Part shown: positions 3,527-14,041 of the stretch, piece by piece
Layout of the letters: each line of letters opens with the position of its first letter
Numbering within the stretch: the first letter of the stretch is position 1
From: a virus
Strand: one strand, 5' to 3'
Length of the DNA: 41,102 nt
Virus genome (UHGV): UHGV-0210063
Notes under the pieces: model-generated
Seen by the model: the letters and a program-made list of their open reading frames with translations, nothing else
What the model was told of the DNA's origin: nothing
The model's database searches: none
Translations under genes and position numbers: made by a program

Positions 3527-3601
<75 letters not shown>

Positions 3602-3604
3602 ATA

Positions 3605-3680
<76 letters not shown>

Positions 3681-3716
3681 ATCAAGTAGCGCGCATTCTA
3701 ATCGCGTGGCCGAAAT

Positions 3717-3801
<85 letters not shown>

Positions 3802-3809
3802 GGACTTGA

Positions 3810-3885
<76 letters not shown>

Positions 3886-3887
3886 AC

Positions 3888-3964
3888 TGGACCGCCACCG
3901 GGGACTCGAACCTCGCACACTCAACTTAAAGGGTTGACGCTCTTTCCTGATGAGCTAGTGGCGG
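3888..3964 (-). tRNA. Atypical tRNA-like gene, anticodon loop CCUUUAA (UUU anticodon, C at position 33)
   Basis: 77 nt; perfect 7-bp acceptor stem C1-G72, D-arm with GG, 5-bp anticodon stem, TTCGAGT T-loop, CCA; non-canonical C33 and one T-stem mismatch. Confidence 0.5.
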
Positions 3965-3965
3965 C

Positions 3966-4041
3966 TGGTGGCCCTTGCTGGATTTGAACCAGCGACCTGG
4001 CGATTATGAGTCGCTCGCTCTCACCACTGAGCTAAAGGGCC
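3966..4041 (-). tRNA. tRNA-Ile2 (anticodon CAU, ileX-like; elongator Met not excluded)
   Basis: 76 nt; closely resembles E. coli ileX as recalled, anticodon loop CUCAUAA. Confidence 0.8.
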
Positions 4042-7455: not shown

Positions 7456-7611
7456 TTACTCCTCAGGTTCGTAAGCTGTGAAGACAGCGACCTCCGTCTG
7501 GCCGGTTCGGATTCGTACCTCGCAGAGGTCTTTCCTCGTTACCAGTGCCGTCACAATGACGGTTAAACAGATGACGATCAGGGCGATTAACATCGCCTTT
7601 TGCTGCTTCAT
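7456..7611 (-). CDS. hokD: Hok/Gef-family type I toxin (HokD/RelF-like)
   Basis: 51 aa MKQQKAMLIALIVICLTVIVTALVTRKDLCEVRIRTGQTEVAVFTAYEPEE, recalled as matching E. coli HokD; ORF track gives an in-frame upstream extension to 7668. Confidence 0.8.
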   Translation of the reverse strand: MKQQKAMLIALIVICLTVIVTALVTRKDLCEVRIRTGQTEVAVFTAYEPEE

Positions 7612-7902
7612 AGCCTGCTTCTCCTTGCCTTTCGGCACGTAAGAGGCTAACCTAGATTTGCCGTTCATAGATTGAGCCTCAGATTAATGTTAAGCGTCTT
7701 GCAGGACGCGTAATGTTAACTGGGGCTTTTCTCTATCTGCCTTTTGGTGTTCATGCCTGAGACAGATAGCCTCAAGCACCCGCTGCAATTCTACTTAACT
7801 CTCCTTTTCCCGCAAACCGTTTTTATCCCCAGCGGCAAATCGAATACACCACCAGCGCCACAGCCATTGCGATTCCTGCCGTTGTAAATGCCTCAGGCCA
7901 GG

Positions 7903-10878: not shown

Positions 10879-11304
10879 TCAATGCACTGCCACAGCATTT
10901 CCTGCCGGGCCACCACGGTTCATCTGATTGAAACCGGCGATTGCCACTGCGACAAAATCATCGGCGTCTCTCACCAGTCGCTCCCGCGTCTCCACCAGCT
11001 CCCGAAAATAAGCTGAACTGTGGCTACGCATTCTGGCCACCAGCAAAGGTGGCATTGCCTTTTCGATCGCTGGTAACAACGCCTGAATTTTTTCAACTGC
11101 ATCAGGGGTGTCTTTCTCTACCCAGCGGAAAATTTTCTGGGTATTGCGAGCCAGGGCTTCCGGATGGCTGTCGTCGTACAGTTCAGGAAACGTCATACCC
11201 AACTCAAAATAAGCCTGGGTTATTCCAGCTGCCGGAACTTTTTCGCCATCAGGACGCGCCCAGGCATTCATCGCCATGCGGATGTGTTCATGCTTGATTT
11301 TCAT
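10879..11304 (-). CDS. YdaT-like protein (CII-like regulator of Rac-type prophages)
   Basis: 141 aa from internal Met (MKIKHEHIRMAMNAWARPDGEK...); directly follows the cro-like gene. Confidence 0.55.
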   Translation of the reverse strand: MKIKHEHIRMAMNAWARPDGEKVPAAGITQAYFELGMTFPELYDDSHPEALARNTQKIFRWVEKDTPDAVEKIQALLPAIEKAMPPLLVARMRSHSSAYFRELVETRERLVRDADDFVAVAIAGFNQMNRGGPAGNAVAVH

Positions 11305-11530
11305 GAATCCCCCCTTGGTTAGAAGGCGGATTATGATCAGAACCGGGAATGACAACCGTCGGTATGTGTAACTCATATTTGAGCGCCCCGGCAGTGACTG
11401 CCTGAATTAGCAACGCCCATTTCCACGGAACCTCTTCCCCCCACATGCTGACTGTGGTTTTTGACGTTCCTAGAGCTGCGGCTGTTTTAACAACTCCGCC
11501 AAAATAGCCTAATACTTCTGATTTTTTCAT
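11288..11530 (-). CDS. Cro-like / YdaS-like HTH regulator
   Basis: 80 aa MKKSEVLGYFGGVVKTAAALGTSKTTVSMW...; GGAG ribosome-binding site; divergent from cI. Confidence 0.65.
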   Translation of the reverse strand: MKKSEVLGYFGGVVKTAAALGTSKTTVSMWGEEVPWKWALLIQAVTAGALKYELHIPTVVIPGSDHNPPSNQGGIHENQA

Positions 11531-11621
11531 GAGTCGCTCCATAAAACTGAACGCCAAAAGTTTAATAATCAAAACCAAAGAAAGTCAAGAAACAAAACCA
11601 TCTGTGTTTTAAAATCAAAAC

Positions 11622-12260
11622 ATGAGCAAGCAAACAATATCTGAACGCATAACCCAACGTATGCATGCGCTAAACCTGAAAGGCAAAGACCTTGTCAATG
11701 CCACTGGCGCATCAAAAGGCTCCGTAAGTCAATGGATGAACGGTGGAGGAGCGCCGTCCTCGCGTTACATAAGTTCACTGGCAAAAATATTGAAAGTAAA
11801 CGAAAATTGGCTTCTTAATGGAGGAGAGTTAAATACAGGTGATTCGCTTGATCTATCTTTACCGCCGATAAAAACGGTTCCGCTACTATCACTTCAGCAG
11901 GCAGCAAGCTGGAGTGATTATATGAAAAATTCCTCAATAACCTCTTGTGTGCAGCTTGTCGGAGAAATCCCGGCCAATACCTTTGCAGTTGTTCTAGAGA
12001 GTGACAGTATGTCAACATCTGGTGGGGGAGTTTCCATCCCAAATGGTTCAACAGTTTTTGTTGATCCCGATCGAACCGTACAACCAGGAAATATTGTCCT
12101 TGCCTTACCCAAAGGGACCACAACACCTGTCATTCGTAAACTGGAGATAGAAGGGCCGGATATTCTTTTAGTCCCCACGAATCCTCGCTACCCTTCAATT
12201 ATGCTGGATGATCTATCTTGCATATTGGGCGTATGCTTTAAAATTCAACAAGATATTTAA
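11622..12260 (+). CDS. CI-like repressor (HTH plus S24 LexA-type peptidase domain)
   Basis: 212 aa; N-terminal HTH (GASKGSVSQWMNGG) and C-terminal domain; divergent from cro-like gene. Confidence 0.8.
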   Translation: MSKQTISERITQRMHALNLKGKDLVNATGASKGSVSQWMNGGGAPSSRYISSLAKILKVNENWLLNGGELNTGDSLDLSLPPIKTVPLLSLQQAASWSDYMKNSSITSCVQLVGEIPANTFAVVLESDSMSTSGGGVSIPNGSTVFVDPDRTVQPGNIVLALPKGTTTPVIRKLEIEGPDILLVPTNPRYPSIMLDDLSCILGVCFKIQQDI

Positions 12261-12334
12261 CCGACCTCATCTATTTGATTAACTGTATGCCATCGTGGTG
12301 ATGGCTTAACAGCTGCCTGCTTAAAATGTTTTGA

Positions 12335-12363
12335 TAAAAAAACATTGACCTGAAAAGTTCATT
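12335..12363 (+). promoter_or_regulatory. Candidate sigma70 promoter of the ydfABC-dicF-dicB operon
   Basis: TTGACC, 17-bp spacer, TAAACT; palindrome CCATCGTGGTGATGG at 12290..12304 may be an operator. Confidence 0.3.
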
Positions 12364-12552
12364 TTTCTAAACTTCATTCATTCCCTCTCCCCACCCCACA
12401 GAATGCAGGGCAATACTTCGAGTTACCAGGCAGTGGTCAGGGGTTAAGTAGCCAGCCTGAGGCGTAAGAACATGACGGCAGGGTTCAACTTTAATAACTA
12501 TGCAGCAGGTTTTTGTTCCGCTACCCCGGCGTTAAGGGGAAATGAGGTCAAC

Positions 12553-12708
12553 ATGGATACTATCGATCTTGGCAACAACGAATCTCTGGTGTACGGCGTG
12601 TTTCCCAACCAGGACGGCACGTTCACCGCGATGACGTATACCAAAAGCAAAACGTTTAAAACCGAAAATGGTGCCCGTCGCTGGCTGGAAAGAAACTCAG
12701 GTGAGTGA
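12553..12708 (+). CDS. ydfA: YdfA (DUF1391) of dicB operon
   Basis: MDTIDLGNNESLVYGVFPNQDGTFTAMTYTKSKTFKTENGARRWLERNSGE, matches Qin YdfA as recalled. Confidence 0.8.
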   Translation: MDTIDLGNNESLVYGVFPNQDGTFTAMTYTKSKTFKTENGARRWLERNSGE

Positions 12709-13988: not shown

Positions 13989-14041
13989 TTTCTGGTGACG
14001 TTTGGCGGTATCAGTTTTACTCCGTGACTGCTCTGCCGCCC
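13989..14041 (+). ncRNA. dicF: DicF small RNA (ftsZ-targeting sRNA)
   Basis: 53-nt UUUCUGGUGACGUUUGGCGGUAUCAGUUUUACUCCGUGACUGCUCUGCCGCCC followed by T-run; matches recalled E. coli DicF. Confidence 0.85.

Follow-up and report, generated by a model that had tools for sequence, protein, structure and literature searches.

Where does the messenger of a prophage repressor begin, and what governs it, when the repressor gene and its divergent neighbour are separated by less than a hundred base pairs? The question is raised by a locus in the UHGV virus genome UHGV-0210063, whose full 41,102 nucleotides (one strand, 5' to 3') are called the window here. A cI-like repressor gene and a cro-like gene on opposite strands flank the stretch from 11531 to 11621. 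This stretch is probably the right-operator (OR) type control region of a lambdoid Escherichia coli prophage with an uncharacterised immunity specificity, and the cI mRNA read from it would be leaderless.

The genes and the ribosome-binding site that border the region are the following.

11288-11530, minus strand: cro-like gene, 80 amino acids (Pfam P22_Cro, 1.1e-15; P22 Cro structure 1rzs, E=2.5e-8; RefSeq coding sequence)
11537-11540, minus strand: Shine-Dalgarno (SD) sequence GGAG of cro, recognised in the sequence (anti-SD duplex of -5.6 kcal/mol)
11622-12260, plus strand: cI-like repressor gene, 212 amino acids, with helix-turn-helix (HTH) and S24 domains (Pfam HTH_3 and Peptidase_S24; lambda cI is the best match in the Protein Data Bank, PDB)

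A maintenance repressor gene with HTH and S24 domains is thus divergent from a small Cro-type gene. Exactly 91 bp lie between the two start codons (minus-strand ATG 11530 and ATG 11622), with a G+C fraction of 0.319 against 0.504 for the whole window (68% A+T in the spacer). The first-pass annotation, made from the letters alone, had described an AT-rich spacer of about 90 bp between cro-like and cI-like genes, and its length, its composition and the identities of both genes agree with the present results. The cro gene begins at ATG 11530, 6 nt from the GGAG, which is also the start given in RefSeq. Another possible cro start, ATG 11542, was rejected, as it lacks an SD sequence and is mutated in relatives. 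The comparative evidence used throughout consists of four Logan contigs with 84-90% protein identity, together with population data. The cI genes of these relatives are 81-83% identical in DNA and 59-64% identical at third codon positions.

The start codon of cI can be placed with precision. An in-frame TAA is located at 11610-11612 and no start codon lies between it and ATG 11622; the three intervening codons (AAT, CAA and AAC) are unable to initiate. Three diverged relatives each show 3-6 synonymous changes in codons 2-13 and only one replacement, the conservative Ser2 to Thr. Because the changes there are almost exclusively synonymous, these codons must be translated. The start codon is ATG in the window, in all four diverged relatives and in 80 viral contigs from IMG/VR that carry the same repressor. 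Helix 1 of the HTH domain is formed by the N-terminus, whose alignment begins at residue 1 for P22 C2 and at residue 6 for the 434 repressor. On sequence grounds, the in-frame TAA and the synonymous drift together fix ATG 11622 as the cI start. A G-to-A change at 11626 (Ser2 to Asn) is found in 29 of the 80 IMG/VR contigs; since residue 2 is Asn in these contigs and Thr in the relatives, codon 2 of the putative leaderless mRNA is free to vary.

The sequence before this ATG has no SD, as had been noted at first pass. The best duplex of the anti-SD with positions -20 to -1 (CUGUGUUUUAAAAUCAAAAC) has an energy of +0.9 kcal/mol, compared with a median of -6.9 and a weakest value of -0.6 kcal/mol for the 31 annotated genes of an identical prophage segment. 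In a set of 96 control genes the value exceeds -2 kcal/mol in just seven, and at the cI starts of the relatives it ranges from 0.1 to 0.7 kcal/mol. In place of a ribosome-binding site, the ATG is preceded by a promoter element.

11610-11615, plus strand: predicted PRM -10 hexamer TAAAAT (5/6), followed by the six bases CAAAAC and then the A of the cI ATG

The usual start of transcription is 7 nt after the hexamer, so the PRM start is predicted to fall on the A of ATG 11622, with a C at -1. The corresponding -35 element is weak, matching the consensus at 3/6 positions whether it is read as AAGAAA (11587-92) or as TCAAGA (11585-90). A hexamer of at least 5/6 at -12 to -7 precedes only 2 of the 1353 ATGs of the window, and it appears there in 0.6% of shuffles of the AT-rich spacer. 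Seven of the 96 control genes lack an SD, and in two a -10-like hexamer lies 5-8 nt ahead of the start; none combines the two features. The combination is present both in the window's cI and in paaR2, the repressor gene of prophage CP-933P. In the predicted fold of the cI mRNA no pairing involves the first four bases, to which the AUG belongs, and the folding of the 5' 60 nt is no stronger than that of shuffled sequences (z=0.46). A leaderless mRNA in E. coli needs AUG, not GUG or UUG, at its 5' end, and AUG is the codon found here. The cI mRNA would thus most probably start at the A of ATG 11622. The first-pass annotation had called a leaderless cI plausible, and this is now a well-supported prediction resting on the hexamer at -12 to -7, on ATG 11622 being the sole possible start of the conserved N-terminus and on the unpaired AUG.

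Promoter prediction on both strands, which had been suggested at first pass, calls a PR-like and a PL-like promoter and misses PRM.

11559-11588, minus strand: PR-like promoter TTGACT-18-TAAACT (-35 at 11588-11583, -10 at 11564-11559), found by a consensus scan and a second scan
12345-12373, plus strand: PL-like promoter TTGACC-17-TAAACT, found by promoter scan, with hexamers conserved in relatives

The predicted PR start is near 11552, so that cro would have a leader of some 22 nt. In the relatives the PR hexamers do not vary. One of the 80 IMG/VR contigs has an A-to-G change at 11559, which converts the predicted PR -10 from TAAACT to TAAACC.

The sequence ATCAAAAC occurs on the plus strand at 11568-11575 and 11614-11621, and a further copy lies inverted at 12328-12335, beside the PL-like promoter. 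There are 6 copies in the whole window against 2.0 expected, a number reached in 2 of 100 shuffles. Repeats in the spacer had earlier been proposed as operator half-sites. Their operator-like behaviour is upheld; what has to be revised is their form and number. On its own ATCAAAAC is not a symmetric half-site; it makes up the right half, the better conserved one, of a 16-bp site, and the region holds three such sites rather than two. The pattern GTTT-N8-AAAC is found exactly three times in the 41 kb (0.85 expected), always at one of the two promoter regions, OR and the left operator region (OL). The predicted operators carry no strand assignment and are as follows.

11560-11575: OR1-like predicted operator (site 1), GTTTAATAATCAAAAC, overlapping the PR -10; invariant in four diverged relatives and in 80 viral contigs
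11583-11598: weaker, OR2-like predicted operator (site 2, a putative assignment), AGTCAAGAAACAAAAC, covering the PR -35 and overlapping the weak PRM -35 region
11606-11621: OR3-like predicted operator (site 3), GTTTTAAAATCAAAAC, covering PRM from the -10 to position -1 and abutting the cI ATG
12328-12343: OL-like predicted operator, GTTTTGATAAAAAAAC, an inverted copy of the OR motif that abuts the PL -35; conserved in relatives
12357-12372: second OL-like predicted site, GTTCATTTTTCTAAAC, between the PL -35 and -10, with one mismatch to GTTT-N8-AAAC

Three repeated predicted operators therefore overlap both divergent promoters, and a second predicted cluster lies at the PL-like promoter beyond the repressor gene. 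Site 2 belongs to a direct-repeat family with 86% identity and is spaced by 23 bp from both neighbours. It ranks 75th of 82,174 positions when scored with a position weight matrix built from the three strong sites, it is invariant in the relatives, and its left half also serves as the PR -35. The second OL-like site ranks 7th of 82,174 with the same matrix; in the relatives L004 and L005 it reads GTTTGTTTTTCTAAAC, an exact match to GTTT-N8-AAAC. No fourth operator in phase was found upstream of site 1, and the segment 11537-11552 was discarded as a candidate, being out of phase and variable in the relatives. Among the papers that could be searched, none was found to give the operator sequences or the protein accessions.

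Conservation follows the predicted sites closely. Between 11557 and 11599 there is a single change, in one relative, and between 11604 and 11621 a single variable base, which lies in site 3 (11617, A/G). The differences cluster in two places, the 4-bp spacer that separates sites 2 and 3 and the cro leader (11531-33, 11542, 11548 and 11553-56). All of 11560-11621, site 3 included, is invariant in the 80 IMG/VR contigs. The recognition-helix segment SKGSVSQW of the repressor is also invariant in the relatives, and together with the invariant operators it fits one predicted immunity specificity shared by all of them. Relatives at intermediate distance were sought to see whether the geometry of -10 and ATG survives operator turnover. 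A word-indexed protein search returned 12 close relatives and none at intermediate distance, a scan of genome contigs none, and a scan of viral contigs 80 loci, all 99-100% identical. Distant homologues in P22, phage 21, LLS, YeP3, Lys8385Vzw and an Stx1 phage mostly lack an SD, and none has a -10 at the same position; they neither support nor contradict a leaderless cI.

These elements suggest the following switch. The three 16-bp sites, 23 bp apart, would be bound by both the cI-like repressor and the Cro-like protein. PR would yield a cro-ydaT mRNA with the short leader and normal ribosome-binding site described above, and repressor bound at sites 1 and 2, over the PR -10 and -35, would shut this promoter off. 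A PRM-type promoter with a good -10 and a poor -35 would start RNA polymerase at the A of ATG 11622, producing a cI mRNA with no 5' untranslated region, whose 5'-terminal AUG ribosomes would bind as they do for lambda cI. Cro, or repressor in excess, would turn cI off from site 3, which overlies the -10 and start of PRM. At the PL-like promoter, the copies of the motif at 12328-43 and 12357-72 would give the repressor a means of silencing the early leftward operon too. In lambdoid switches the repressor and Cro favour opposite operator sites, and this produces bistability. Such opposite preferences have been demonstrated for the analogous region of CP-933P (PMC8630535).

The gene that follows cro supplies a possible second route to cI expression.

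10879-11304, minus strand: ydaT, CII-analogue gene downstream of cro (Pfam YdaT_toxin; RefSeq coding sequence)
11294-11311, no strand assigned: candidate YdaT-binding site TTGATT-ttcatg-AATCcc at the cro/ydaT junction, with two mismatches to the published YdaT operator
11332-11337, plus strand: candidate -10 TATGAT of a putative PRE-like promoter, which would place the centre of the YdaT site near -41.5

The YdaT protein is near-identical to the crystallised CII analogue of CP-933P (PDB 8bt1, the structure described in PMC9986795, E=4e-79; 3c4r, 8e-89). The published YdaT operator is TTGATTN6AATCAA (PMC9986795). The candidate site has one perfect half-site and one that matches at 4/6 positions (AATCCC), and the homologous position of Sp12/CP-933P holds a perfect site. 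Across the window the motif is not enriched (23 found, 24 expected), and only the junction copy was retained, for its position and its homology to CP-933P. This candidate site could serve a PRE-like promoter for the establishment of cI. The homology with CP-933P/Sp12, which includes the shared ydaT, stops within the operator itself: Sp12 (L007, 48253-48270) has the perfect TTGATTttcatgAATCAA and the window (11294-11311) has TTGATTttcatgAATCcc. A good -10 lies about 30 bp downstream of the centre of the YdaT site in both Sp12 (TACAAT) and the window (TATGAT), in surroundings that are unrelated, and with this spacing YdaT would sit near -42 relative to a promoter directed at cI in both elements.

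Several observations weigh against a lambda-like OR with a leaderless cI messenger. The consensus scan fails to call PRM, in which only 3/6 of the -35 matches and the TGn extension is missing. The hexamer TAAAAT lies wholly within operator 3 and might be a by-product of an AT-rich operator that abuts the ATG; the chance estimate for its position is therefore not as independent as it might seem. Relative to the proposed PRM start, the centre of site 2 is near -31.5, compared with -42 in lambda, so that contact activation in the manner of lambda is not obviously possible. The operators are the same in all available relatives, which leaves no covariation by which the pairing of repressor and operator might be tested. 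Finally, the plus strand has another -10 candidate, AATAAT (11564-69), from which a transcript would have a 46-nt leader devoid of an SD, and the A/U-rich sequence before the ATG (about 70% A+U over 40 nt) could permit SD-independent initiation on a leadered transcript. cI might accordingly be translated from ATG 11622 on such transcripts, by way of the unstructured A/U-rich upstream sequence and ribosomal protein S1, although we consider this unlikely. The transcripts could come from AATAAT, which is a 5/6 hexamer; however, it lacks the conserved first T, has a -35 of 3/6 and is situated inside operator 1, where the repressor should sit in a lysogen. They could also come from a YdaT-activated PRE-like promoter at the cro/ydaT junction (near 11294-11343), in which case the leader would be about 280 nt long and antisense to cro. 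The candidate YdaT site with TATGAT 21 nt downstream of it points in this direction, as does the activation of PRE in vivo by the near-identical CP-933P protein (PMC8630535, PMC9986795). Nevertheless, a PRE transcript accounts for establishment and not for maintenance, and the YdaT site has a degenerate right half, because the CP-933P homology ends inside the site. A promoter-like plus-strand match inside cro (11487-11516) is of no help to this explanation, being within chance expectation (3 found, 2.1 expected), and was dropped. Leadered transcripts may also coexist with a leaderless PRM transcript, as the PRE transcript does in lambda.

The same missing SD might be thought irrelevant if the repressor began downstream, at Met14, Met39 or Met101, with 11622-11660 as an untranslated leader. 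Public records do give the gene four lengths: 212 amino acids, 199 from Met14 (11661) in phage vB_EcoS-640R1, 174 from Met39 (11736), and 112 from Met101 (11922-12260), the last being the RefSeq 'LexA family protein' WP_001397087.1, which has no DNA-binding domain. Furthermore, ATG 11922 is preceded by GGAG (-5.9 kcal/mol), and both are conserved in the relatives. The almost purely synonymous drift of codons 2-13 argues against all three starts. In addition, Met14 has no SD either (+0.4 kcal/mol) and a start there would remove most of HTH helix 1, which is aligned to P22 C2 and the 434 repressor; two relatives have Ile in place of Met39; and a start at Met101 would remove the whole DNA-binding domain. 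A downstream start is hence scarcely credible, even if an extra internal product from 11922, which cannot be the repressor, may be made. The conflict between the records is explained by the missing ribosome-binding site at the true start, as gene callers reject a first ATG that has no SD. It is nearly as improbable that the repeats are incidental AT-rich promoter DNA, of the UP-element or curved type, and not protein operators. A-tracts are common in spacers as AT-rich as this one, the relaxed 16-mer pattern (three mismatches) is not enriched window-wide, and site 2 scores just modestly. Against this, exact GTTT-N8-AAAC is confined to two repressor-controlled promoter regions, 700 bp apart and inverted; the sites do not vary, in contrast to the flanking spacers and synonymous positions, which diverge; one OL site varies toward the consensus in relatives; and the recognition helix is invariant in these same relatives. 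A set of true operators serving a leaderless PRM remains the preferred interpretation of the region.

The position of site 2 leaves room for a different form of autoregulation. Relief of competition between PR and PRM is a speculative alternative to contact activation, and it can be considered together with the S24 domain of the repressor. This domain was aligned with those of lambda cI, P22 c2, e14 YmfK and four other repressors, making seven types, and of the close relative P0034. The Ser-Lys dyad is incomplete: Ser129 is kept, and the column of lambda Lys192 (TFKKL) is occupied by Arg172 (VIRKL; codons 12135-12140 together with Lys173). All seven other repressor types have Lys in this catalytic column, and P0034, which is 84% identical, has Arg. 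At the cleavage site, where Ala-Gly or Cys-Gly would be expected, the aligned pair is Ala94-Ala95 (11901-11906); the seven other types have Ala-Gly, and P0034 again has Ala-Ala. A shifted dyad using the adjacent Lys173 is conceivable. The repressor, to judge by these residues, might not self-cleave on RecA activation. The LexA box CTGT-N8-ACAG has no exact match anywhere in the window. It is possible, but rather doubtful, that the switch is wired unlike that of lambda, with the repressor unable to activate PRM by a lambda-type contact at -42 and raising it only by clearing polymerase from the overlapping PR, then shutting it off tightly through site 3, and with induction independent of RecA. 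If this were so, the Ala-Ala pair, Arg172 and the operator shift would together amount to a switch, widespread among E. coli prophages, in which autoregulation works by promoter competition and RecA is not needed for induction.

The region belongs to a mosaic lambdoid E. coli prophage. The 1.6 kb around it are 99-100% identical to chromosomal prophages of many strains, at least 80% of this 1.6-kb region is found in 1035 of 5426 complete E. coli genomes, and it is also present in three E. coli phages, induced or predicted. One further feature lies between the repressor gene and the PL-like promoter.

12289-12305, plus strand: hairpin GCCATC-gtggt-GATGGC, 29 nt past the cI stop, with a stem that is conserved and a loop that varies in relatives

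The loop is GTGGT, ATATT or ACAGT among the relatives and no T-tract follows the hairpin, which may be the end of the cI transcript. The PL-like promoter is directed away from cI into an operon of the ydfA/ydfC/DicF/dicB type. Downstream of it there is a 90-nt C-rich leader at 12380-12470 (CCCTCTCCCCACCCCACAG...), partly conserved in relatives, and the first open reading frame (12472-12708) encodes a DUF1391 (YdfA/YdaF-like) protein. No open reading frame for an N-type antiterminator is apparent just after the promoter (12380-12708). A scan with Rfam found nothing in the cro/cI intergenic region. Elsewhere in the window it identified the small RNA DicF at 13990-14041 (plus strand), within the left operon; a sok antitoxin RNA of a hok/sok-type module at 7606-7781 (minus strand); and a cluster of six tRNA genes at 3530-4041 (minus strand), in the late-gene regulatory region.

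The immunity type is common in E. coli, and no named phage repressor exceeds about 31% identity to the cI described here. Recognition of the leaderless-type start restores the full 212-residue repressor and corrects a widespread truncated annotation. The predicted operators are defined sequences that can be used to predict immunity groups among E. coli prophages.

The design itself is ordinary and known. A compact divergent region with a leaderless repressor mRNA has been documented for lambda, CP-933P, Qin, Rac, e14 and PY54, and it is the immunity type that is uncharacterised. Among characterised repressors, P22 c2 and phage 21 cI come closest, at 28% identity. They have the same HTH and S24 domains, align from residue 1, are partnered by a P22-type Cro across an 80-bp divergent region, and likewise have no SD before the repressor ATG (-1.4 kcal/mol). 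Their operators are different, however, and they have no -10-like hexamer at -12 to -7. P22 c2 also has the canonical Ala-Gly site and catalytic Lys in place of Ala-Ala and Arg; phage 21 cI was outside that alignment.

The likeness to the OR region of lambda is one of layout. In both, an HTH-S24 repressor gene diverges from cro at a distance of roughly 90-100 bp, three operators 23-24 bp apart are common to PR and PRM, and a second cluster occurs at PL downstream of cI. The PRM -10 ends six bases before the A of the ATG in each case (TAGATT-TAACGT-ATG in the lambda record, TAAAAT-CAAAAC-ATG here), the PRM -35 is weak, there is no usable SD, and the coding sequence starts A-rich (ATGAGCA...). 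The proteins are only distantly related, the repressor being about 25% identical to lambda cI and the Cro being of the P22_Cro family, and the operators are 16-bp AT-rich GTTT-N8-AAAC sites, whereas those of lambda are 17-mers. The predicted starts of PR and PRM are about 70 bp apart, compared with 83 bp in lambda and 76 bp in CP-933P, which brings them one helical turn closer than in lambda. As further differences, the -35 hexamers of PR and PRM overlap by 2 bp, site 3 is centred at -8.5, covering the PRM -10 and start, instead of at -19, and the role of CII would be taken by YdaT.

The maintenance repressors dicA (Qin), racR (Rac), ymfK (e14) and PY54 cI are also encoded divergently from a cro-like gene. 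Only five leaderless mRNAs were found in E. coli K-12 by differential RNA sequencing, and three of these were the prophage repressors dicA, racR and ymfK (PMC4681348); PY54 cI was shown to be leaderless by RACE (amplification of cDNA ends; PMC4488713). The mapped starts of these messengers lie at the AUG or a few nucleotides from it, and the start in the window is predicted. The left operon of the window (ydfA-like DUF1391, ydfC, DicF and dicB) resembles that of Qin, whereas the proteins and operators of the K-12 cryptic prophages and PY54 are unrelated or distant (YmfK is 21% identical).

CP-933P/Sp12 of E. coli O157:H7, with its PaaR2-YdaS-YdaT system (PMC8630535, PMC9986795), differs from the window in that its PaaR2 and YdaS have no detectable similarity to the repressor and Cro described here. 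It carries the toxin-antitoxin pair paaA2-parE2 after the repressor gene, which the window does not, and the S24 domain is a feature of the window's repressor. In architecture the two are very close. The divergent region of CP-933P is 97 bp long, compared with 91 bp, and its PR, TTGACT-18-TAAACT, is identical in hexamers and spacing. Its PRM reads GATAAT-TACCAC-ATG in the Sakai genome, again a -10 followed by 6 nt and the ATG, and paaR2 has been found to be leaderless by 5'-RACE, N-terminal sequencing and mass spectrometry (PMC8630535). Equally spaced GTTTA-type repeats extend over both promoters and recur at PL, and the near-identical ydaT gene is accompanied in both elements by a TTGATT-N6-AATC sequence, which in the window is a candidate YdaT site.

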